From Dehalococcoidia bacterium (GTDB lineage: Bacteria > Chloroflexota > Dehalococcoidia > Lucifugimonadales > UBA3495), in assembly GCA_965219925.1 (NCBI GenBank), contig OZ244795.1, positions 1,981,622 to 2,045,621 of the forward strand: a stretch of DNA of 64,000 bases, given 5' to 3'. The first letter of the stretch is position 1. Every line of letters starts with the position of its first letter. Positions 54,890 through 64,000 of this stretch are shown one piece after another. Below the pieces are notes generated by a model. It did not search any database, was not told the origin of the DNA, and worked only from the letters and a program-made list of their open reading frames with translations. Both the position numbers and the translations under genes were made by a program.

Positions 54890-56536
54890 GTGGACGGAGT
54901 TACAGCAGTAGCCAATGTTCTAAAAATGGAAGGCGTGGAGTGGATTGCGGTGATGCCGTCCAACCCGCTGATCGAAGCCGCCGCCATCGCGGGAATCCGG
55001 CCGGTGGTTTGTCGGCAGGAACGCACCGGAGTACACATGGCGGACGGGTTCTCCCGGGTCAACAACGGTAAGAAAACGGGCATTTTCCTGGCTCAGAACG
55101 GGCCAGGCGCCGAGAACGCGTTCGGCGGCGTGGCGCAGGCTTATGCCGATTCAGTGCCGATACTGATATTGCCGGCGGGGGTGGCCCGTAAGCGAGTTGG
55201 GGTTGAACCCAATTTCCATCCGGTGCGGGCCTACGAACCGATTACGAAATGGGCAGCCCACGTCAATTATGCCGACCGCGTACCTGAACTCATGCGCCAG
55301 GCGTTCACCAAGCTGCGTTCCGGCAAGCCGGGCCCGGTTCTCCTTGAAATCCCACAGGATCTGTCAGCAGACGAAATCAGCGAAGAAGATTTCGATTACA
55401 TTCCGCCCCAGCACATGCGGACGGCGGCGGATCCCCAGGCGATCACCCGAGCGGTGCGCGGGTTGATGTCGGCGCACCGCCCGGTGATCATGGCCGGGCA
55501 GGGCGTCATGTACGCTGAGGCCACGGCTGAACTGATGGAACTGGCTGAGTTGCTGCAGATCCCCGTGATGACTACCCTGGAAGGCAAGAGCGCGTTCCCG
55601 GAAAATCACCCGCTATCCCTGGGAATCGGCGGGTCGAGCCAAACCGGTCAGGTACACCGTTTCCTCACCAATGCCGACGTGGTATTCGGCGTGGGCGTCA
55701 GTTTCACCAAGAGCAGTTTTACGGTGCCAATCCCCGCCGGCAAAACCCTGATTCATTTGACCAACGGCGACGATGACATCAACAAGGATTACCGATCTGA
55801 ATACCCGATACTGGCAGACGCCAAGCTGGCGCTGCGGCAGTTTATTGATGAGCTGAAAGCCCAGGGCGTGCCGGCTCGGGCGGCCAATCAGGAACTGGCG
55901 GACGAGATTGCGGCGTTGAAGGAAGCCTGGCTTGCCGAGTGGATGCCCCGGTTGACCAGCAATGAAATCCCCCTGAACCCGTATCGGGTAGTGTGGGACA
56001 TCATGCACACCGTGGACCTGGACAACACGATCGTGACCCACGAGTCGGGCAGCCCGCGTGAGCAGGTATCGCCGTTCTGGGAAGCCAGGGCGCCCCGCAG
56101 CTTCATCGGCTGGGGCAAGTCAACGCAGCTGGGGTACAGCCTGGGGTTGGCGATGGGGGCCAAGATGGCCGCTCCCGAAAAGATGGTTATCAACTTCATG
56201 GGCGATGCTGCGTTCGGCATGGTGGGCCTGGACGTGGAAACGGCGGTGCGCTCCGGCATACCCATCACCACGGTGGTGATGAACAACTCGACGATGGCCA
56301 TTTACCCCGACAGTCGCATACCGACCGCGGTGGAACGCTACAACATCAAGGAATTGAGCGGCGATTTCTATCAGGTGGGGTTGGCTCTGGGCGCTTACGC
56401 CGAGCAGATCCATACGCCCGATGAGATTAAGCCGGCGATGCAACGAGCCATGGAAGCCAACGGGAACGGACGCCCGGCGTTGCTGGAGTTCATAACCAAG
56501 GAAGAGGGCACCTTCTCCAAGTTCCAGTTCAATTAG
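54890..56536 (+). CDS. Thiamine pyrophosphate-dependent enzyme (acetolactate synthase-like family)
   Basis: RQER...HMADG, GPG, PGPV..E.P.D, GDAAFGM...NNS TPP motif. Confidence 0.92.
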   Translation: MDGVTAVANVLKMEGVEWIAVMPSNPLIEAAAIAGIRPVVCRQERTGVHMADGFSRVNNGKKTGIFLAQNGPGAENAFGGVAQAYADSVPILILPAGVARKRVGVEPNFHPVRAYEPITKWAAHVNYADRVPELMRQAFTKLRSGKPGPVLLEIPQDLSADEISEEDFDYIPPQHMRTAADPQAITRAVRGLMSAHRPVIMAGQGVMYAEATAELMELAELLQIPVMTTLEGKSAFPENHPLSLGIGGSSQTGQVHRFLTNADVVFGVGVSFTKSSFTVPIPAGKTLIHLTNGDDDINKDYRSEYPILADAKLALRQFIDELKAQGVPARAANQELADEIAALKEAWLAEWMPRLTSNEIPLNPYRVVWDIMHTVDLDNTIVTHESGSPREQVSPFWEARAPRSFIGWGKSTQLGYSLGLAMGAKMAAPEKMVINFMGDAAFGMVGLDVETAVRSGIPITTVVMNNSTMAIYPDSRIPTAVERYNIKELSGDFYQVGLALGAYAEQIHTPDEIKPAMQRAMEANGNGRPALLEFITKEEGTFSKFQFN

Positions 56537-56650
56537 ACTTGGCTATAAGCGGCTGGGTCTGCCAGTCGAATTGCTGACATCTCCCCGTAGCAACATCGCC
56601 GACCGGTTATTTACACTGGCCGGCGATGTTTTATTGCGGAGGAGAGGCTG

Positions 56651-57511
56651 ATGGTCGTTGCGAAACCGCTTGATGCAGCACGGTCGAGGCAGGAATTTGA
56701 CGCCGAGTTGACCCAATTGGTCACTGGGGCGAATGGTGTGAGTGGCCCGGTGGGAACGCCGGAATGCGTTGCGCCCTCGGCTGCGCCGGCATCACCGCCG
56801 AAGCCAGCCGACCCGGCCCAACCAACGATCCGGGAATTACCCAACGGCGAGCGGCCACGGGAGAGGTTGCGGCAAAGAGGCTCGAGGGAATTGTCCAACA
56901 CGGAATTGGTGGCGATTCTCCTGCGAACCGGAATGAAGGGTGAGAACGCCGTCAGCATGGCATCGCGGATCATGGCCGATTTCGGTGGCCTGGATGGTCT
57001 GGCGAAGGCGGATTATGGGGAGTTGATCCGGGAGCGTGGGTTGAGCGATGCCAAGGCGTGCCAGGTAATAGCAGCCCTGGAGTTGGGCCGCCGTGTCGCC
57101 TCACTACCGCCGGCCGAACGGCCGCAAATCTCATGCGCCCAGGACGCAGTCAACCTGATCGCGCCGGAAATGGCGGCGCTGGATCAGGAGAATCTGGTGG
57201 TTTTACTGATGGACACGCGCAACCGGATGGTGCTGAAGCGGACCGTTTATATCGGCACGGTCAATAGCAGTGCGGTGCGTCCCGCTGAGGTGCTGCGGCC
57301 GGCGATCCGGGAGAACGTGCCGTCCATCATAGTCGCGCACAACCATCCGTCCGGGGACCCGACGCCCAGCCCTGAAGATGTGGCGGTGACGCGAGACCTG
57401 GTGGCCGCCGGGAAACTTATGGACATAGAACTGCACGACCATTTGATCATCGGCTCTGGGGGACGTTTTACCAGTCTCCGCGGCATTGGTTCCGGATTCG
57501 AACCGGCGTGA
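56651..57511 (+). CDS. radC: RadC family protein (HhH + JAB) with Pro/Ala-rich N-terminal extension
   Basis: ERPRERL, ELVAILLRTG, GTVNSS.V.P.EV, AHNHPSGDPTPS.ED, DHLIIG. Confidence 0.93.
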   Translation: MVVAKPLDAARSRQEFDAELTQLVTGANGVSGPVGTPECVAPSAAPASPPKPADPAQPTIRELPNGERPRERLRQRGSRELSNTELVAILLRTGMKGENAVSMASRIMADFGGLDGLAKADYGELIRERGLSDAKACQVIAALELGRRVASLPPAERPQISCAQDAVNLIAPEMAALDQENLVVLLMDTRNRMVLKRTVYIGTVNSSAVRPAEVLRPAIRENVPSIIVAHNHPSGDPTPSPEDVAVTRDLVAAGKLMDIELHDHLIIGSGGRFTSLRGIGSGFEPA

Positions 57512-57570
57512 TTATCACGCACTCGCGGTGATAAACTCCACGGTACGCAACCTGCGGAGGATGATATTAC

Positions 57571-57903
57571 ATGAGCGATTACTTTTTGGAGACCACCGAT
57601 CGAGGGTACAAGGAACTTGTGCCCGGCGCCCGCACGCGGACTTTTTGGGGCGCGCAGATGCTGTTCTCCCTGGTGGAAGTCGAGGCGGGGGCGCTGGTGC
57701 CTCTGCATACCCATCCCCACGAACAGGGCGGAATCATCGTTGAAGGCGAACTGGAGATGGGGATCGGCGGCGAGGTGAAGCTGCTGAAGCCGGGAGACAT
57801 GTATATCATTCCGGGAGATGTGGAACACTACGCCCAGGGGCAGCAAACAAGGGCGGTGGCTCTGGACATATTCAGCCCGGTGCGGGAGGAGTTTAAGTAC
57901 TAA
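57571..57903 (+). CDS. Cupin domain protein
   Basis: VPLHTHPHEQ...G.LE, PGD...IP..VEH, LDIFSPVRE. Confidence 0.92.
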   Translation: MSDYFLETTDRGYKELVPGARTRTFWGAQMLFSLVEVEAGALVPLHTHPHEQGGIIVEGELEMGIGGEVKLLKPGDMYIIPGDVEHYAQGQQTRAVALDIFSPVREEFKY

Positions 57904-57926
57904 CGCCGCGAAGTTGGCCCGTAATA

Positions 57927-58787
57927 CTAACCGGCGTCGTTGAAGTAATCGGCAACCGCCAGTACCAGGTTGCCCATGTGAGGATGTTCGGGTTCCACAT
58001 TAACGGTAATTCCGCATTCTTCCAGCTTCCGGGTACACACCGGGCCCACTGACGCTACGGCAACCGGACCGGACAGACAGTAGCGCAGAGAGTCTTCCTT
58101 ACCGGCTTCGGCGGCAATGGTCAGTAAATTGGGCACCTGGGGTCGGCTGGTAAATGCCAGGGCGTCGATATTGCCCTGCTCCATTTCGTTGATAAGGGAC
58201 AAAACGGGGCCGTGGTCTACGGGCAGGCCCCAGTCGTAAAGGGTGAGTTCCCGGTAGTTGGCGCGCTGAGCCCGCAGGAAGGTGGGGAGTTGAGCATCTG
58301 GGCCACCGTAGCGTTGCACGACAACCTCTGCCCCATCAAGCGCCAGCCCGGACATTGAAGCCGTCAAGTCAGCGGACGTATAGGGTTCCGGCGGCATGAT
58401 GTCGATGGGGATTTTATGATGCCGCAATACCCGAGCCGGTTTCGGACTCCGCGCGACCACGGTGGCATTTCGCAGGCTGGCGACGAATTCGTCCTGGCAG
58501 CCCATAGCCGCAGCGGTTTCCATCATCGCCTGAGTGCCCACACCGGTTAGGAAGATTGCGATGCCCACCGCTCCGTTACACACATCGGTGATGGCTTGTT
58601 GAACTTGGGGGCTGTCCTTCAGGTAGTGTTCCTGGAGCACGGGAGCGCCCAGGGGAACACCGCCGTGGCGTCGGATCAGGCTGGCCATTTCGTCGGGCAT
58701 TCGAGCCTCGACGAAGGCCAGCACACGTCCGTTCAGAGATGGGCCAGGCATGGGCAGGATGGAACGGGGGTTATACGGCGCACTCAC
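57927..58787 (-). CDS. hemD: Uroporphyrinogen-III synthase (HemD-like)
   Basis: FLTGVG, ARSPKP, Q.YG, FTS.PQV, SVGPVC...L, P.HP.MG; overlaps the reductase stop. Confidence 0.75.
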   Translation of the reverse strand: MSAPYNPRSILPMPGPSLNGRVLAFVEARMPDEMASLIRRHGGVPLGAPVLQEHYLKDSPQVQQAITDVCNGAVGIAIFLTGVGTQAMMETAAAMGCQDEFVASLRNATVVARSPKPARVLRHHKIPIDIMPPEPYTSADLTASMSGLALDGAEVVVQRYGGPDAQLPTFLRAQRANYRELTLYDWGLPVDHGPVLSLINEMEQGNIDALAFTSRPQVPNLLTIAAEAGKEDSLRYCLSGPVAVASVGPVCTRKLEECGITVNVEPEHPHMGNLVLAVADYFNDAG

Positions 58788-60603
58788 CTTCTCCGCGTTC
58801 CAGCACGTACTGGTTGGTTCGTTCCCAGTCGAAGTACATTTCCCCGCCGCCCTCGGCCTCGTGTCCGATTTCCTGGGCCCGCGCGGCTACCGAGGTTACC
58901 TCGTCTATTCCGACCCGCTCCAGGAAATCGTTGAATCGCTCCGACTCGTTGTCACGATTGTCCTTGTAGAAGGTGACGATTTCTTTGAGAACCGATGGGA
59001 CGAGCTTGGCGGGAACCTTAACCTTGGGAACCCGGGTGCCGATGCGAGAGTCTTCCACGCGGTTGTCCCCGTAGTTGCCGCCCAGGAAAAGCTCGTACGA
59101 TGGAATTTGCTGTCCGTCCACGCCTTTCACGGCAGCCCCGTGGAACCCGATGTTGGCGATGTGATGCAGGCCGCACCCATTGGGGCATCCACTCATCTTG
59201 ATGCGGATGTCCTTTACCCCGGCATCCTGCTGCATCCCATTCCAGCTTTGCATCTCAGAGCGAAGAGCCTCGGCCAGACCCATTGAGGAAGTGATACCAA
59301 GTTTGCAACTGTCGGTTCCGGGGCAGGAAACGACGTTGGTGATGTGGTCGTGGCCGGGTTCGCCGAGATCCAGAGCGACCAGGGCTCTCCATACGGTGGC
59401 GAGGTGGCCGGTCGGCACCCAACGAATCACCAGGTTTTGTTCCTGTGTGGTGCGGGCTTGGCCGCCAGCATACTCCCTCACGATGTTGGCCAACCCGTGG
59501 AACTGTTCGGGCGAGAGATCGCCCCGGACAGGCTTTACATAAACCACGTGATACCCTTCCTGCCGCTGGGCTGCGACGTTGGTGTCGCGCCACTGGCGGA
59601 ATTCAGGACTGTCTTCCGTGGATGCTGCAGCGGGTTGAACGGGTGGGGTTTCGCGCTGGATCTCTTCCGCCACCATCAAAGGCCGATGATCAATCGGGCC
59701 GATGCCGGCCAGTTCGGTATCAACCATCTGTTTGAATTCGTCCAGCCCAATCTTGTCGATGAGGACCTTCAGACGCGCCATCATCCGATTTTTGCGAAGG
59801 ATGTCAGCGTTGTTGAACACAGTCCAGATCGCCAAAGCGACCCGGAGGTAGTCATCCTCGGAAACCCAATCGTACAGCGGTTTGGCCAGGCGGGGCATGA
59901 TGGACGTTCCGCCCCCGCAGTAAACCTTGAATCCCTTACGCTGTTCGCCATCGATTTCCTTGTATTGGGAAACGAATGTCAGATCCTGGATGGCCGCCGC
60001 CACTTCGTCTCTCCGGTCGTTGCCGGTGAACGCGGTTTTGAACTTCCGGGGGAAGTTTTGGGTGATGGGATGGCGCACGCCAAACCGAACGTATGCGGTG
60101 AGATACGGCGTCGGGTCGAAGGTTTCTTCCGGGCTGACCCCAGCGGTCGCCGGGCCAACCACGTTGCGGACGGTGTTGCCGCAAGCCTCGCGGGTGGACA
60201 GCCCCACCTTGCCCAGCAAACGCAGCGCGGTCGAGGTTTGTTCCAGCGGAACGTGGTGGAACTGAATATTCTCCCTGGTGGTGATATGACCTTTTTGCAA
60301 CGGGGCGTAATGTTCCGCGATTTCGCCCAGGGCGTCGAGCATATCGGCCGAGGCGATTCCACCGGGTAGTTTCACCCGGATCATCTGCACGTCGGCCTGG
60401 CGTTGGCCATAAACACCCTGCCGTAGCCGGAACGGCGTGAACACTGTGTTGTCCAGCTCGCCGGACCGGAACCGGTCGACTTCGGCATCGAACCGCACGA
60501 TTTCTTCTTCCATGAACGGGATAATCCCGGTGGCATCGGGCGCCAGATTCATGCTGGCATCATGGATGTCTTTCAGGTTGGGCGCATGAGCTTGGCTGGT
60601 CAA
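58771..60603 (-). CDS. Siroheme/4Fe-4S sulfite (or nitrite) reductase hemoprotein
   Basis: FRL..GVYGQRQ, HITTRENIQ, REACGNTVRN, PRKFK, CPGTDSC...SGCPNGC, C-terminal G.GECA; AAGGAG RBS before TTG start. Confidence 0.93.
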   Translation of the reverse strand: MTSQAHAPNLKDIHDASMNLAPDATGIIPFMEEEIVRFDAEVDRFRSGELDNTVFTPFRLRQGVYGQRQADVQMIRVKLPGGIASADMLDALGEIAEHYAPLQKGHITTRENIQFHHVPLEQTSTALRLLGKVGLSTREACGNTVRNVVGPATAGVSPEETFDPTPYLTAYVRFGVRHPITQNFPRKFKTAFTGNDRRDEVAAAIQDLTFVSQYKEIDGEQRKGFKVYCGGGTSIMPRLAKPLYDWVSEDDYLRVALAIWTVFNNADILRKNRMMARLKVLIDKIGLDEFKQMVDTELAGIGPIDHRPLMVAEEIQRETPPVQPAAASTEDSPEFRQWRDTNVAAQRQEGYHVVYVKPVRGDLSPEQFHGLANIVREYAGGQARTTQEQNLVIRWVPTGHLATVWRALVALDLGEPGHDHITNVVSCPGTDSCKLGITSSMGLAEALRSEMQSWNGMQQDAGVKDIRIKMSGCPNGCGLHHIANIGFHGAAVKGVDGQQIPSYELFLGGNYGDNRVEDSRIGTRVPKVKVPAKLVPSVLKEIVTFYKDNRDNESERFNDFLERVGIDEVTSVAARAQEIGHEAEGGGEMYFDWERTNQYVLERGEGECAV

Positions 60604-60627
60604 GTTAATCTCCTTCGAGCGCGGGCA

Positions 60628-60669
60628 TAAAAAAGACCCACCTTAGCCGGTTGGCGGTGCTGGTGGGCG
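60628..60669 (-). terminator. Attenuator terminator upstream of the sulfite reductase
   Basis: Minus strand GCCCACC-AGC-ACCG-CCAAC-CGG-CTAA-GGTGGGT then CTTTTTTA, about 25 nt before the start codon. Confidence 0.8.
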
Positions 60670-60700
60670 CAGGGTTAGGGCTTGATTTTGTCAGTGCTTG

Positions 60701-60775
60701 CTATCCTGCTCCCGTTTTTTCGGTACAGGTACAAGTACAAAGACAGGTTTGGTTGCTTTTGCAGTTACTGTGCAT
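60701..60775 (-). CDS. Cys-rich leader peptide MHSNCKSNQTCLCTCTCTEKTGAG (24 aa), putative attenuator peptide
   Basis: Manual translation ATG(60775)...TAG(60701); 5 Cys, four of them in alternating codons; lies between promoter and terminator. Confidence 0.75.
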   Translation of the reverse strand: MHSNCKSNQTCLCTCTCTEKTGAG

Positions 60776-60783
60776 TTGCGAAA

Positions 60784-60812
60784 ACTATACAGTCGTGGTC
60801 GGGAATTGTCAA
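60784..60812 (-). promoter_or_regulatory. sigma70 promoter yielding a leaderless or near-leaderless transcript of the Cys leader peptide
   Basis: TTGACA (60812-60807)-17 nt-TATAGT (60789-60784), 8 nt before the ATG; no SD. Confidence 0.8.
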
Positions 60813-60921
60813 CGATGTTTATTTGGTGAAAATTCGTACCTGAATCGGGGTGATTCTCACCAGTGGAGGCCGTCGTTTTAGTGGGCAAGCGGGATTTTTG
60901 CGTGGCCCAGCGATGGACGTG

Positions 60922-61602
60922 TCAGCGCAACGTACGGTCGGATTTGAGGTCGCGGTTGCTGACAGTGTGCCCGGAGATCAGCCACAACGTACGTTCGGCG
61001 ATGTTGGTCGCCCGGTCGGCGATTCGTTCCAGGTCGTGGGCCACCCACAGCAGGTATGTTGCCCGCTGGATGGTGCGCGGATCCTGCAGCATGTAGGTGA
61101 GCAACTCGCGATAGATCTGGTCGTACAGGTCGTCCACCACATCATCATCGGCGCATACCTTGCGAGCCAGATCCTCATCCCGGTCAGCGAAGGACAGCAA
61201 ACTTTCGTTAAGCATCTTGAGGGCCAGGTCTGCCATCCGCGGGATGTCGATCAACGGTTTCAATAGTGGTTCTTCATAGGTGCGGAGGCAGATTTTTGCG
61301 ATGCCCTCGGCGTAGTCGCCCATTCGCTCCAGCTCAACCCCCAGGTGCACAACCGACATTACGGTGCGCAGATCGGTGGCGATTGGCTGCTGCGTCGCCA
61401 GCACGCTGACGCACTTGTCCTCCAGCGTGTTCTGCAGGTTGTCTATCACGTCATCGTTATCGATGACCTGCCGGGCAAGGTCGGCATCCCGGTTTTGCAG
61501 GGCCTGTAGAGCCTGTCGGGTGGTTTGATCGACCAAACGACCCATTTCGGCCAGGTCGGCCTGCAAATTTTCCAGTAGCTGGTTGAATTCTGACCTGAGC
61601 AT
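60922..61602 (-). CDS. phoU: Phosphate signalling protein PhoU
   Basis: QQP.A.DLR, LERMGDYAEGIA, DD.VD.LY, LERIADRATNIAE. Confidence 0.96.
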   Translation of the reverse strand: MLRSEFNQLLENLQADLAEMGRLVDQTTRQALQALQNRDADLARQVIDNDDVIDNLQNTLEDKCVSVLATQQPIATDLRTVMSVVHLGVELERMGDYAEGIAKICLRTYEEPLLKPLIDIPRMADLALKMLNESLLSFADRDEDLARKVCADDDVVDDLYDQIYRELLTYMLQDPRTIQRATYLLWVAHDLERIADRATNIAERTLWLISGHTVSNRDLKSDRTLR

Positions 61603-61644
61603 ATCGGCGCCTCCTTGGGTTGGGGTTACCGCCGCCAGAACGGT

Positions 61645-62430
61645 TTAGCCAAATCTTCCGGTGATGTATGCCTCGGTGCGCTCGTCCTGCGGGTTGGTGA
61701 ACATGCGTGAAGTTTGGTCGAATTCTATCAGATGCGCTACGCGGTTTTCGTCGGGCATCAGAAAGGCTGTTTTGTCCGACACCCGGCCGGCCTGTTGCAT
61801 GTTATGCGTCACGATAATGATGGTGTAGCGCTGTTTGAGTTCCCGCATCAAATCTTCAATGGCCAGGGTGGCGATGGGGTCCAGTGCCGAACAAGGTTCG
61901 TCCATAAGGATGACGCTGGGTTGAATGGCCAGCGTGCGTGCGATGCACAGCCTCTGCTGCTGACCACCGGAGAGAGCCAGCGCCGATTCCTTCAGGCGGT
62001 CTTTCACCTCATCCCAAAGCGCGGCAGACCTGAGTGAATCCTCCACGATGGCGTCAAGGCTCCCCGTGTACCCGTTGATGCGCGGCCCGAAGGCTACGTT
62101 TTCGTAGATGGACTTGGCGAAAGGGTTGGGCCGCTGGAACACCATCCCGATTTCATAACGAATTTGCGTCGGGTCTGAACCGGGAGCGTACAGGTTATAC
62201 TCGCCAAACCAGACTTGGCCTTCCATGCGGAACGACGGGATGAGGTCGTTCATCCGGTTTATGCAGCGCAACAGAGTGCTTTTTCCGCCGCCGCTGGGGC
62301 CGATGATCGCCGTGATTTCCTTCTCCGTAACTTCCATGGAGATATCTTCAATCACCTGATTATCGCCGTAGTAAACTCCAACATCGTCAAACCGGATTGC
62401 GGGGTTGGTGGCAATTGCCTGGTTTGTCAT
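61645..62430 (-). CDS. pstB: Phosphate ABC transporter ATPase
   Basis: [52 protein letters not shown]. Confidence 0.97.
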
Positions 62431-62436
62431 AACCGA

Positions 62437-63339
62437 TTACCCCCGGTGTTTGCCCTGGAGATGGTTGCGCAGGAGAATGGCCGCAGCATTCAATCCCAAC
62501 AGCATAATCAACAGTACCACGATGCCGGCGGCGGCCAGTTGGTGGAACTCTTCCTGCGGTTTGGAGATCCACACGTAAATCTGGATTGGCAAAACGGTAA
62601 ACCGATCCAGTGGAGAGGTTGGCGCAAAGGGCACGAAAGAAAGGGCGCCCATAATCACCAGCGGAGCGGCTTCCCCCATCGCCCGGCTGACCGCCAGGAT
62701 GATTCCGGTCAGGATACCCGGCATGGCCTGTGGGAGCACCAGTCGCCACACTACCTGCCAACGAGTTGCCCCCAGCGCATAGCCGCCTTCCCTGACGGTG
62801 GACGGCACGGCGCGGATGGCTTCTTCTGCCGAAACTATAACCACCGGCATTATCAGCAACGCCAGCGTCAGACCGGCCGTCAATACGCTCTTGCCCATTG
62901 CGAAAACCGCCACGAAAATGGCGAGGCCCAGGATGCCGTACACAATGGACGGGACGGCGGCCAGGTTTTGGATATTGACCTGTATCAACTCGTCTATCCG
63001 CCGCCCTCCGGCATACTCTTCCAGGTAGATAGCGGCAGCCACTCCCACCGTGAACGACACCACAATGCAGATGCCCATCACCCACAGCGTGCCCACGATG
63101 GCAGGCCACAGGCCCGAAGCCACGGCTTTGCTGGAGGGGATATCGGTGAGGAGGGTTACGATTGAGCTGCCATCAAGGTTGAACCACTGCAGCGCTTCCG
63201 CCAATACGCTGTAAAGCAACGCCGCCAGCATCAGCAGACTCAACAGGATCGCCGACATGCACACCGCGCGGAACACCAGAGCGTTGCGCCGGCGTTTGAC
63301 CAACTTGCGCCGATATTCGGTGGGATTGGACACGGCCAT
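62437..63339 (-). CDS. pstA: Phosphate ABC transporter permease PstA
   Basis: AIYLEEY, NLAAVPSIVYG, ALGATRWQ, SRAMGEAAPL. Confidence 0.95.
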   Translation of the reverse strand: MAVSNPTEYRRKLVKRRRNALVFRAVCMSAILLSLLMLAALLYSVLAEALQWFNLDGSSIVTLLTDIPSSKAVASGLWPAIVGTLWVMGICIVVSFTVGVAAAIYLEEYAGGRRIDELIQVNIQNLAAVPSIVYGILGLAIFVAVFAMGKSVLTAGLTLALLIMPVVIVSAEEAIRAVPSTVREGGYALGATRWQVVWRLVLPQAMPGILTGIILAVSRAMGEAAPLVIMGALSFVPFAPTSPLDRFTVLPIQIYVWISKPQEEFHQLAAAGIVVLLIMLLGLNAAAILLRNHLQGKHRG

Positions 63340-64000
63340 TATTCGTACACCTCGCGGAACCTGGTGACGACCGTGTGACTTATCATGTTCATGACCAGGG
63401 TGATTACGAAAAGGGTGATTCCCACCGCAAACAACGCCTGGAATTGAGCGGTTCCGGGTATGGCGTTATCACTGAAGTTGGTGGTTGCCATGAACCCGGT
63501 CATGGTGTTGACTGGCCCCAGAGGGTTGAAGGTGAGTGAATCGTTTTGGCCCGCGGCGATGAACACGATCATCGTCTCACCGATCGCCCGGGATGTGGCC
63601 AGGATAATGGCAGAAACGATGCCCGAAAGAGCGGCTGGCACCACCACTTTCGTCGCTACTTCAACCTTGGTCGCACCGAGGGCGTAAGCGCCCTCCCGGA
63701 GCGCCGATGGGACTGCGCGCATCGCATCTTCGCTGAGACTGGAAACCATGGGAACGATCATTACGCCCATCACGATGCCGGCAGCAAGGGCGTTGAATAT
63801 GCCGACGTCGTCACTAATCAGGCGCAGCAGCGGGGTGATGAAGAAGAGGGCGAAAAAGCCGTACACGACGGTCGGTATCCCAGCCAGGATTTCCAAAACC
63901 GGCTTGGTGATGGCGCGCACACGCGGCGGAGCGTACTCACTGAGGAAGATGGCGCACAGCAAACCCAGGGGAGTTGCGATCAGCATTGCCAGCACCGCGA
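63339..64000 (-). CDS. pstC: Phosphate ABC transporter permease PstC (5' truncated by window edge)
   Basis: [40 protein letters not shown]. Confidence 0.94.

Follow-up and report, generated by a model that had tools for sequence, protein, structure and literature searches.

A candidate cysteine-sensing leader-peptide attenuator upstream of a sulfite reductase operon in SAR202 Chloroflexota

What lies between a near-consensus promoter and the start of a NirA/Sir-family reductase gene in a Dehalococcoidia bacterium of the SAR202 group, and does it regulate the genes that follow? SAR202 bacteria are abundant and uncultured, and are found in the ocean and in sponges; to our knowledge, almost nothing is known of how they regulate their genes. 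All positions given here are those of the window, the 64,000-nt stretch of contig OZ244795.1 (GCA_965219925.1) that was analysed, and the element lies on its minus strand. We read it as a ribosome-mediated transcription attenuator that senses cysteinyl-tRNA and forms part of a small cysteine regulon, a reading to which we assign a probability of roughly 80%. Its features, together with the genes downstream, are as follows.

60807-60812, minus strand: -35 hexamer TTGACA, invariant in the 23 rows of the genus alignment that reach it
60784-60789, minus strand: -10 hexamer TATAGT, 17-nt spacer from the -35 hexamer
60701-60775, minus strand: leader sORF MHSNCKSNQTCLCTCTCTEKTGAG, 24 codons plus TAG; frame, start and Cys codons kept in 69/69 genus loci
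60761-60763, minus strand: Cys codon 5 (TGC)
60725-60745, minus strand: distal, putatively regulatory Cys codons 11, 13, 15 and 17, each TGT, with Leu and Thr codons between them
60721-60745, minus strand: segment 1, in the Cys-codon tract, 5' arm of the 1:2 (anti-antiterminator/pause) hairpin in minimum-energy folds
60701-60713, minus strand: segment 2, GGGAGCAGGAUAG, last sORF codons and stop, partner of either segment 1 or segment 3
60665-60678, minus strand: segment 3, CUAACCCUGCGCCC, antiterminator 3' arm, of which the final CCC falls in the terminator 5' arm
60636-60668, minus strand: predicted intrinsic terminator hairpin GCCCACC...GGUGGGU, from folding (-14.6 kcal/mol) and covariation
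60629-60635, minus strand: terminator U-tract CUUUUUU; a U-rich tail follows the hairpin in 60/61 leaders examined
60610-60615, minus strand: Shine-Dalgarno AAGGAG before the reductase gene; relatives conserve AGGAGG
58771-60603, minus strand: NirA/Sir-family sulfite (or nitrite) reductase, 610 aa, TTG start (Pfam NIR_SIR 1.2e-48, NIR_SIR_ferr 1.5e-33)
57927-58787, minus strand: uroporphyrinogen-III synthase HemD, 286 aa (Pfam HEM4 3e-36; NCBIfam)

The original prediction had named a near-consensus promoter, TTGACA-17-TATAGT, and it is present at 60812-60784 on the minus strand. Eleven of its 12 positions agree with the consensus, and of the three promoter-like sites in 55000-64000 it ranks first; the same sequence, when shuffled, gave 3.6 +/- 2.1 such sites at 9/12 or better. 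The sORF begins with an ATG at 60775, 8 nt past the -10 box (TTTCGCAA), and this gap, on inspection, contains neither a purine-rich stretch nor a Shine-Dalgarno, as had been claimed. We predict from this layout a transcript that is leaderless or carries a leader of 1-2 nt. The ATG stands 8 nt past TATA[GT]T in 45 of the 46 distinct leaders of the genus, and the distance is 6-10 nt in other leaders of the reductase type and, by inspection, 9-15 nt in those of a second, ThiF type described below. Assembled RNA contigs (runs X1-X4), in which no start, end or strand is readable, span the leader, the terminator and the reductase. They also extend past the predicted start, as far upstream as 60859, 60967 and 61021, which fits read-through from phoU or carry-over of DNA. 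In a 2011 survey only 4/12 genomes of Chloroflexi were predicted to have leaderless genes (roughly 4.7% of genes; PMC3160421). That scarcity is a point against the attenuator reading.

Translation bore out the 24-codon frame with Cys at codons 5, 11, 13, 15 and 17. Cysteine thus takes 5 of its 24 codons, compared with 1.02% of the 681,100 codons in the long open frames of the same genome, where TGT is the minor Cys codon (23.6% of Cys codons). A CxCxC pattern occurs in 41 of this genome's 52,576 ATG sORFs of 8-45 aa, and when the 40 nt upstream of those 41 were inspected, a consensus promoter was seen only before this leader. The enrichment extends through the genus: in the 46 distinct leaders Cys accounts for 217/1,082 codons (20.1%, against 1.02% genome-wide), with 217 TGY triplets in frame and a single one in the +2 frame. 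Thirty of these leaders have five Cys codons, 13 have four, two have six and one has three. At the Cys positions TGT and TGC replace each other, the codons in between vary and indels preserve the frame, while an N-terminal M(H/Q)S(N/T)CK is kept within the genus. The alternating Cys-Thr register, of which the original prediction knew no description, is not a special trait: the residues between Cys are T, S, A, I, L or M among relatives and some relatives have adjacent Cys codons. Such sORFs fall under gene-calling cut-offs and are therefore absent from annotations.

Orthologous reductases offered a direct check for Cys-rich sORFs and terminators in the same place, and both were found upstream of them in 25/25 congeneric genomes and at 69/69 loci. 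In all 69 loci, which comprise 46 distinct sequences and 37 distinct peptides, the promoter and start codon are retained, the sORF stays in frame with 3-6 Cys codons, and the terminator follows it. In the genus alignment, conservation runs from the -35 box through the U-tract, and the DNA upstream of the -35 box has diverged. One locus whose contig begins within the reductase gene (L073) was left out of the comparison, and a scan of four Bacteroidota loci (L106-L109, 33-34% identity) found no Cys-rich sORF. On these sequence grounds, conservation and Cys enrichment together exclude a chance origin of the element.

A hairpin followed by a U-tract, also part of the original prediction, occupies 60668-60629. 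A simple terminator scan of 55000-64000 did not list this hairpin because its loop is above the limit of the scan, and it was folding that found it. Its stem is paired in 88-92% of alignment cells, with both sides changed at 5-7 pairs; in the narrower alignment, 7 of 13 pairs have changed on both sides, a level matched by 0/500 shuffles. The antiterminator is complementary in 95% of genus cells. In the wider alignment the terminator has 21 double-changed cells. The antiterminator is 92.1% paired across 49 sequences, and 5/8 of its pairs are double-changed; with a slid partner, pairing falls to 38-58%. Some of the double changes in this wide comparison come from distant rows of uncertain alignment. 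Within the genus, covariation of the antiterminator and of the 1:2 hairpin did not exceed shuffles. Beyond the genus-level comparison, covariation of the 1:2 hairpin is modest, with 5 double-changed pairs, a number that 16/500 shuffles reach. Segment 1 appears in relatives as CCUGUCCCCC, pairing with GGGGGCAGG (80-82% of cells paired), and segment 2 is near-invariant, synonymous sites included.

These segments suggest how the leader might work. Transcription would begin at the ATG or within 2 nt of it, and a ribosome would load without a Shine-Dalgarno and trail the polymerase. With cysteine plentiful, the ribosome would reach the UAG and cover segment 2 (GGGAGCAGG-UAG), leaving segment 3 free; the GCCCACC/GGUGGGU hairpin would then form before the U-tract, and transcription would stop about 25 nt ahead of the reductase gene. 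If no ribosome were present, segment 1, in the Cys-codon tract, would pair with segment 2 and termination would again be expected. With Cys-tRNA scarce, the ribosome would stall on Cys codons 11-17 and cover segment 1, so that segment 2 could pair with segment 3 once the latter is made; the base of the terminator would be withheld and the polymerase would enter the operon. We infer the start site, termination at the U-tract, stalling, a kinetic choice between hairpins and the response to cysteine from this arrangement.

Folding speaks to the switch in part. When Cys codons 13-17 are masked as if by a ribosome, the window leader has a minimum-energy fold in which GGG.GCAGG.UAG (60713-60701) pairs with CUA..CCUGC.CCC (60678-60665), and the claimed complementarity between the last sORF codons and a region overlapping the terminator 5' arm is thus found in the masked fold; the antiterminator and the terminator 5' arm overlap there by only 3 nt (CCC). 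At equilibrium the probability of the terminator in this leader is 0.13 under stall and 0.96 with the ribosome at the stop. Statistics on ribosome-masked folding cover 60 leaders, leaving out L074, whose sORF was mis-assigned, and L028, in which the routine found no terminator. For nascent transcripts, the RNA was cut ahead of the terminator 3' arm, and a stall was simulated by masking the last Cys codon or the one before it. The median probability that the base of the terminator 5' arm is sequestered was then 0.77 under stall, 0.44 in the absence of a ribosome and 0.25 with the ribosome at the stop, and sequestration was greater under stall than at the stop in 56/60 leaders. The two proposed alternative structures found support in nascent transcripts but mostly not in full-length equilibrium folds, which retained the terminator under simulated stall in 53/60 leaders; a kinetic, co-transcriptional choice must accordingly be assumed. 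Shuffling segment 2 lowered median sequestration only from 0.75 to 0.59, and in only 7 of 57 leaders did at most 2 of 40 such shuffles reach the observed value. The stability of the whole window leader was not significant against shuffles (-45 versus -41.4 +/- 3.9 kcal/mol, z = -0.92).

The persistence of the terminator in equilibrium folds lends some weight to a different output. The sORF could sense Cys-tRNA and act on translation of the reductase by unmasking its ribosome-binding site, as in mycobacterial Ms5788A, or on access of Rho, with the hairpin serving only as a leaky terminator or stabiliser. The experimentally dissected Cys sORF does act on translation (10.1101/834739, in its accessible part), and the U-tract of the window leader is paired to the Shine-Dalgarno region in its minimum-energy fold. 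Against this stand a canonical, covarying hairpin with a U-run after the sORF in 60/61 leaders and the complementarity of segment 2 to the terminator 5' flank in 92-95% of cells. In the consensus fold of the leaders, moreover, the Cys tract is not paired to the Shine-Dalgarno in any conserved way. We consider a translational or Rho-dependent output improbable and continue with transcription attenuation as the preferred reading.

If cysteine is the signal, other cysteine genes might carry the same device. A DNA BLAST search with the leader against 301 genomes of the order proved too insensitive, returning only its own copy and one 29-nt match (E 9.8e-4), and a covariance model, R1, took its place. 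R1 has matches in 97/101 genomes of the family and 26/27 genera, with two or more in 71 of the 97 matching genomes (counted from the table), and 0 matches in 150 other genomes of a class-wide draw. In 20/20 genomes checked, from 10 genera, one copy precedes the reductase (with or without HemD) and another precedes a ThiF-like gene and a PALP (CysK/M-like) gene. The second copy in the window's own genome, at 811098-811260 in genome coordinates, has the sequence MMRSQLPRYTCACPHT with a hairpin and U5 after it, and lies before ThiF-like and CysK-like genes; its leader folds at z = -2.38. Leaders of this ThiF type have fewer Cys codons than those of the reductase. In another family, for which no reductase match was obtained, 4/4 R1 matches precede the ThiF-CysK operon, and in one lineage a leader precedes an operon for TusA, DsrE2 and a luciferase-like monooxygenase (LLM). 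A scan of the 600 nt upstream of cysK-like, ATP-sulfurylase and PAPS-reductase-like genes found no Cys sORFs; it missed the second leader because this stands ahead of the ThiF-like gene, at a distance of some 1.07 kb from the cysK-like gene on its upstream side, and a CxCxC scan missed it because it has only C-x-C. A homologous leader before a second cysteine-synthesis operon provides independent support for cysteine as the signal, and the two leaders may together make up a small cysteine regulon in which no protein serves as sensor.

Some additional R1 matches have other explanations. A third match in G365 was rejected as a leader because it is partial and covers the terminator only (E 0.0078), and one in G221 (E 0.04) corresponds to the Cys-rich C-terminal tail of an ATP-sulfurylase gene. 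G367, an assembly of 340 contigs, has four matches, one of them before a reductase gene.

More distant SAR202 lineages share the architecture but have different N-terminal peptide halves, which beyond the genus are unrelated. There the sORF has 13-29 codons and 1-6 Cys codons, begins at a set distance from the -10 box and ends in or beside the 1:2 hairpin; some lineages have a single Cys codon (L026, L069 and both leaders of G331). Even so, in 40 leaders of 20 further genomes the frame remains open and the Cys codons in frame despite changes in length. The C-terminal codons are kept as nucleotides, at synonymous sites too, and conservation continues beyond the stop codon. The extra Cys codons fall outside every helix. 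The last one lies inside the 1:2 helix, so that part of its conservation may be structural.

This pattern bears on whether the peptide itself could be the product. The sORF could instead encode a functional Cys-rich micropeptide, such as a partner of the reductase that binds metal or sulfur, and the terminator would then only set the ratio of peptide to enzyme. This would accord with the resemblance of CxCxCxC to metal-binding motifs and with the N-terminal M(H/Q)S(N/T)CK of the genus. It accords poorly with N-termini that are unrelated outside the genus and lengths and Cys numbers that range over 13-29 codons and 1-6 Cys. Nucleotide-level conservation of the C-terminal codons, past the stop, and the same type of sORF before an unrelated operon of the same pathway also argue against it, and we regard it as very improbable. 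There is likewise only a slim chance that the leader goes untranslated and acts on the terminator as an RNA switch, whether as a riboswitch or by binding a protein or tRNA, with an incidental frame: it has several conserved hairpins with a terminator, and a helix does include the CCN codons and the UGY of the final Cys codon, but a search of Rfam covariance models over 59800-61600 on both strands gave no match near a gathering score (four at E >= 1), start codons stand 6-10 nt past the -10 box in reductase-type leaders, the frame is open with in-frame Cys throughout the genus (69 loci) and in the 40 leaders from 20 further genomes, and the extra Cys codons are outside any helix. Attenuation of the sulfite reductase by Cys codons, the core of the original prediction, is supported in our comparison by the conserved sORF, the covarying terminator and the second cysteine operon.

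The genes downstream of the window leader were correctly foreseen as a ribosome-binding site and a sulfite reductase-hemD operon after the terminator: AAGGAG at 60615-60610 is followed by the TTG at 60603 and, further on, by HemD. The start of the HemD gene overlaps the end of the reductase gene, and the order reductase-HemD is common to 19/20 relatives checked. The top NCBIfam match of the reductase is 'NirA family protein', at a score under its cut-off. That a gene of the NirA family follows a cysteine element argues for reduction of sulfite rather than nitrite, and the enzyme probably acts on sulfite.

A bolder proposal, which we find doubtful as a whole, has two parts. This SAR202 family would sense cysteine chiefly through its homologous leaders, with no protein involved, and these would join sulfite reduction, a ThiF/MoeB-like and CysK/M-like route and, in one lineage, TusA-DsrE2-LLM. 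In addition, the near-invariant last codons of the sORF (Cys-x-Cys-Pro-Pro/Arg-Thr-stop, the UAG lying in a hairpin loop) would do more than supply bases for pairing. They would act as a built-in proline/termination pause that times the ribosome against the polymerase, so that general translation capacity, such as EF-P activity, is read as well.

The leader would provide a concrete regulatory device for sulfur assimilation in SAR202, with a predicted form of leader-peptide attenuation in Chloroflexota in which the start codon stands at the 5' end of the transcript. It would extend cysteine-sensing sORFs beyond Actinobacteria, here with a classical terminator and antiterminator. The covariance model may also serve as a marker by which the genes that follow (NirA-family reductase, ThiF-like and CysK/M-like, TusA-DsrE2-LLM) can be assigned to cysteine supply.

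The classical leader-peptide transcription attenuators are trpL, hisL, thrL, pheL and leuL of proteobacteria, and in thrL and pheL the regulatory codons are interspersed with others. The SAR202 leader resembles them in its short ORF, enriched in codons of the amino acid that the pathway makes, its alternative 1:2, 2:3 and 3:4 hairpins and its intrinsic terminator ahead of biosynthetic genes. It differs in the amino acid, cysteine, in the absence of a Shine-Dalgarno, in a start 8 nt past the -10 box and in its occurrence in Chloroflexota, and the classical leaders have no sequence or Rfam relationship to it. The claim that no cysteine leader-peptide attenuator had been described in Chloroflexota agrees with our literature search, which found none for SAR202 or Chloroflexota.

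The nearest parallels come from other phyla, each cited here for the accessible part of its source. In the mycobacterial 'Cys ribulon', polycysteine leaderless sORFs act as attenuators (Canestrari et al. 2020, 10.1101/834739), and its authors stated that they knew of no earlier description of uORF-mediated cysteine attenuation. Both systems have a Cys-rich sORF as the first cistron, several cysteine operons per genome with an sORF each and the ribosome as sensor, in SAR202 a putative one. The Cys ribulon uses consecutive Cys codons and translational control through sequestration of the ribosome-binding site (10.1101/834739), whereas the window leader has C-x-C-x-C-x-C without consecutive Cys, a Cys tract that pairs with segment 2, and a terminator with an antiterminator; the leaders of its two operons are, in addition, homologous to each other under R1. 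Candidate Cys leader peptides with runs of Cys codons near the stop were proposed for cys operons of Actinobacteria (Seliverstov et al. 2005, PMC1262725), with no conserved terminator hairpins reported in that text and Rho-dependent termination suggested, in contrast to the covarying terminator of SAR202. The uORFC-8-2 motif before cysS in Rhodobacterales, a predicted ribosome-mediated attenuator (Brewer et al. 2021, PMC8632094), shares with the SAR202 leader Cys codons in a stem and a terminator with a U-run. It differs in its two tandem Cys codons at positions 14-15, its tRNA synthetase gene and its alphaproteobacterial hosts, and the accessible text makes no mention of leaderless starts; the window leader has an NIR_SIR reductase downstream instead of cysS, and its Cys codons are not in tandem. 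In Streptomyces lividans, leuL2, trpL1 and ilvL are leaderless leader peptides with Rho-independent terminators (PMC8079986) that match the SAR202 leader in hairpin with U-stretch and amino-acid genes downstream, and its start as predicted; these actinobacterial leaders serve Leu, Trp and Ile/Val, with no cysteine member listed in that part of the article. Set beside these systems, the SAR202 leader is most likely a known type of switch, previously unreported in SAR202 or Chloroflexota, by which the ribosome turns on cysteine genes when cysteine is short.

The leader runs on the minus strand ahead of the sulfite reductase-hemD operon, and the anatomy that the original prediction had described, namely a promoter, a closely following ATG, a Cys-rich sORF, a hairpin with a U-tract and a ribosome-binding site, was borne out by the following features.

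60812-60807, minus strand: -35 box, TTGACA (sequence)
60789-60784, minus strand: -10 box, TATAGT, 17 nt past the -35 box (sequence)
60775, minus strand: ATG start of the sORF, 8 nt past the -10 box with no purine run between (sequence)
60775 to the TAG stop at 60703-60701, minus strand: leader sORF MHSNCKSNQTCLCTCTCTEKTGAG, 24 codons (translation)
60668-60636, minus strand: terminator hairpin GCCCACC...GGUGGGU, 33 nt, then CUUUUUU (folding)
60603, minus strand: TTG start, preceded by AAGGAG, of a 610-aa NIR_SIR protein (sequence, family search)
3' of the reductase gene and overlapping it, minus strand: HemD gene (family search)

We consider it likely, with a probability of about 0.8, that this element is a transcription attenuator in which the ribosome senses Cys-tRNA, and that it forms a regulon of two operons across a SAR202 family. 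TTGACA-17-TATAGT is the top promoter-like site in the part of the window between 55 and 64 kb, matching at 11 of 12 positions. The sORF contains five Cys among its 24 codons, four of them TGT. In the long open frames of this 4.34-Mb genome, 1.02% of codons specify Cys, and TGT is the rarer of the two Cys codons (23.6%). A CxCxC motif occurs in 41 of the 52,576 ATG sORFs of 8-45 aa in this genome, and only the leader sORF among those 41 has a consensus promoter ahead of it. An Rfam search of the leader region found nothing. The fold of the whole leader is not unusually stable relative to shuffles (z = -0.92); it is the comparison with relatives that carries the argument.

Of 41 related genomes, 37 had a reductase orthologue, among them every one of the 25 genus members, and the Cys-rich sORFs expected upstream of them were found at the same place in 25/25 genus genomes, each starting with ATG and spanning 22-29 codons with 3-6 Cys. 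The 69 genus-level loci, taken from genomes and public records with some records counted twice, comprise 46 different leader sequences encoding 37 different peptides, every one with 3-6 Cys. Cys accounts for 217 of 1,082 codons in these leaders; TGY triplets number 217 in frame, 52 in the +1 frame (by inspection mostly the TGC within the start ATGCA) and one in +2, and the frame is preserved despite insertions of 9-15 nt. Between species, the region is unalignable upstream of the -35 box and conserved from there to the U-tract. Strain variants in four sponge metatranscriptome assemblies match the window without a single difference across 60505-60851, 346 nt containing the leader, but diverge at about one position in 30 within the reductase gene and on the upstream side of the promoter.

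Two short elements are also conserved. The first 10 nt of the promoter spacer region (60790-60812, minus strand) are invariant in the genus (TTGACAATTCCCGACC), and several other genera have TTGACAATTGTTGAC in the promoter instead, a direct TTGAC repeat. Since this conservation exceeds the needs of a sigma-70 promoter, the site may also be bound by a regulator that adds a second level of control. The first 18 nt of the sORF (60758-60775, minus strand; AUGCAnAGUAnnUGCAAA) are nearly invariant within the genus and can pair as a 4-bp UGCA/UGCA hairpin that contains both Cys codon 5 and the start codon, which could influence leaderless initiation.

The same leader plan recurs at loci with 58-73% reductase identity, and at some with about 50%, with unrelated N-terminal peptide halves (for example MYLIGTCVCSCTCPPT, MVMVEAPACTCTCPPT, MRKSMLVCCYCCPLT and MDAILTTCACTCT). 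One peptide, MNSNWLAASVCCSCPPT, starts with GTG 6 nt past the -10 box, and a few have just one or two Cys, such as MRFEDDLFHLCTRLLM. The distant leaders place the stop codon in the loop of a CCCCC/GGGGG hairpin, and the G-rich strand past the stop resembles the 3' arm of the terminator, as a segment 2 (in the window, the sORF end with its stop) should. At most loci with about 50% reductase identity, such an sORF was absent by the criteria used.

Covariation was sought in each of the three structures. The terminator is paired in 88.1% of cells in a 25-sequence alignment, where seven pairs changed on both sides, a level reached by 0 of 500 shuffles, and in 91.6% of cells with 21 double changes in a 49-sequence alignment; a covarying hairpin, which the original prediction had asked to look for, is present. 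The predicted antiterminator, in which the sORF end pairs with the 5' flank of the terminator (segment 3) as GGG.GCAGG with CCUGC.CCC, is 95% paired in the genus, where no compensatory changes were found, and 92.1% paired in the wide alignment, compared with 38-58% when the partner was slid out of register. Five of its eight pairs are double-changed in the wide alignment (reached by 0-2 of 500 shuffles), part of these changes lying in distant rows of uncertain alignment; a clear compensatory case is the relative L076, in which a G-C pair became C-G. The hairpin between the Cys-codon tract (segment 1) and segment 2 is 80-82% paired with modest covariation support. An RNAalifold consensus recovered both this 1:2 hairpin and the terminator, together with a third, small hairpin on the 5' side that contains the start codon.

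Whether the structures alternate as predicted received a divided answer from folding. With the ribosome masking the 5' end through 13 nt beyond the first base of the A-site codon, and nascent transcripts cut ahead of the terminator 3' arm, the median probability that the base of the 5' arm was sequestered was 0.77 with a stall at either the last or the penultimate Cys codon, 0.25 at the stop codon and 0.44 with no ribosome; stalling exceeded the stop in 56 of 60 leaders. In full-length equilibrium folds, however, the terminator won even under stall in 53 of 60. The window leader is among the seven exceptions (terminator 0.13 under stall, 0.96 at the stop); its antiterminator and terminator overlap by only 3 nt. 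Shuffling segment 2 lowered sequestration only modestly. As equilibrium folds mostly keep the terminator, the model needs a kinetic choice, as in classical attenuators. In the E. coli trp leader, the terminator is likewise the more stable hairpin.

A covariance model built from 49 leaders matched 97 of 101 family genomes and 26 of 27 genera, with at least two matches in 71 family genomes, as counted from the table. The sole genus without a match, g25 (G297, G347, G361 and G375; 0/4), has small genomes of 1.5-1.8 Mb. A class-wide draw gave matches in 0 of 150 other genomes, and an order-wide draw in 17 of 151, including the own genome, four of its family and two other families with 4/4 genomes each.

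The own genome has a second match outside the window (811131-811260, E 3.8e-4), within a leader homologous to the first (G000:C1:811090-811265, equal to L146:1460-1635). Here TTGACA and TAAACT are followed by two ATGs, 9 and 12 nt past TAAACT. The sORF, MMRSQLPRYTCACPHT, stops at a UAG that sits in the loop of a 1:2 hairpin of 11 bp; a strong hairpin with U5 comes next, and the leader folds with z = -2.38. Behind it are genes for a ThiF/MoeB/MoeZ-like adenylyltransferase and a CysK/M-like PLP enzyme. Both matches were fetched from 20 genomes of 10 genera, and in all 20 one leader preceded the reductase, which HemD accompanied in 19, while the second preceded a ThiF-like and CysK-like pair. In all 40 leaders, the sORF begins at the first position of the model and has Cys codons near its end; Cys makes up 125 of 670 codons, or 86 once each leader's last Cys is set aside. 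In a family without any reductase match, 4/4 model matches sit ahead of the ThiF-CysK pair. That two unrelated operons of the same pathway share a leader whose sole conserved coding feature is Cys (and Pro) codons is the strongest argument for cysteine as the signal.

A weak match (L191:60-2773, G058:C13:27862-30574; E 1.8e-4) in a single genome from yet another family of the order combines the sORF MTYQIVIECICTCTREGPG with a terminator. The genes behind it are TusA-like, DsrE2-like, two unknown and F420/luciferase-like monooxygenase genes, and they may be a third sulfur operon under such a leader. Elsewhere, a 434-aa ATP-sulfurylase-like gene (L205:253-1557; G221:C2, ~2824193-2825497) has a Cys-rich end, ...MSMHAIDCSCCACTCTQEEP, directly followed by a hairpin and U5, whereas its own-genome orthologue ends in ...TIPPPP and lacks the tail. 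This tail, weakly matched by the model (E 0.04), might have arisen by chance or might represent a leader that has fused with the gene before it.

The leader is immediately preceded, on its own strand, by a pstC/pstA/pstB-phoU phosphate-transport operon (60922-63995, minus strand); PhoU and one ABC ATPase were confirmed by Pfam. Transcription read-through into the leader is possible, since phoU and the leader promoter have no visible U-tract terminator between them. The leader stretch is present in four sponge metatranscriptome runs, as assembled contigs only, which bridge leader, terminator and reductase and run upstream of the predicted start; they show no ends, and DNA carry-over is possible. 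On the minus strand, a 199-aa ORF (57247-57846), which overlaps a RadC-like gene (56651-57511, plus strand) and gave no match in a family search, is probably spurious, which leaves the attenuated operon with apparently two genes only.

Leader-peptide attenuation is a textbook mechanism, and its use here is unsurprising; what is new for the phylum is the system itself, which is widely conserved, absent from annotations and open to direct testing. None of the curated RNA families matches the SAR202 leader, and a search of the literature on SAR202/Chloroflexi leader peptides, attenuation, leaderless genes and sulfite reductase found nothing relevant. For cysteine, related elements in the literature searched are candidate leader peptides in Actinobacteria that lack terminators (PMC1262725), a predicted Cys-codon attenuator ahead of cysS in Rhodobacterales (PMC8632094), and leaderless polycysteine sORFs shown experimentally to act on translation in mycobacteria (10.1101/834739). 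In Streptomyces, leader peptides that are leaderless and followed by Rho-independent terminators are described for other amino acids (PMC8079986). The mycobacterial Cys ribulon resembles the SAR202 leaders at the level of the regulon, whereas its hallmarks of consecutive Cys codons and ribosome-binding-site sequestering are not shared by the SAR202 leader, which would work as the classical attenuators do.
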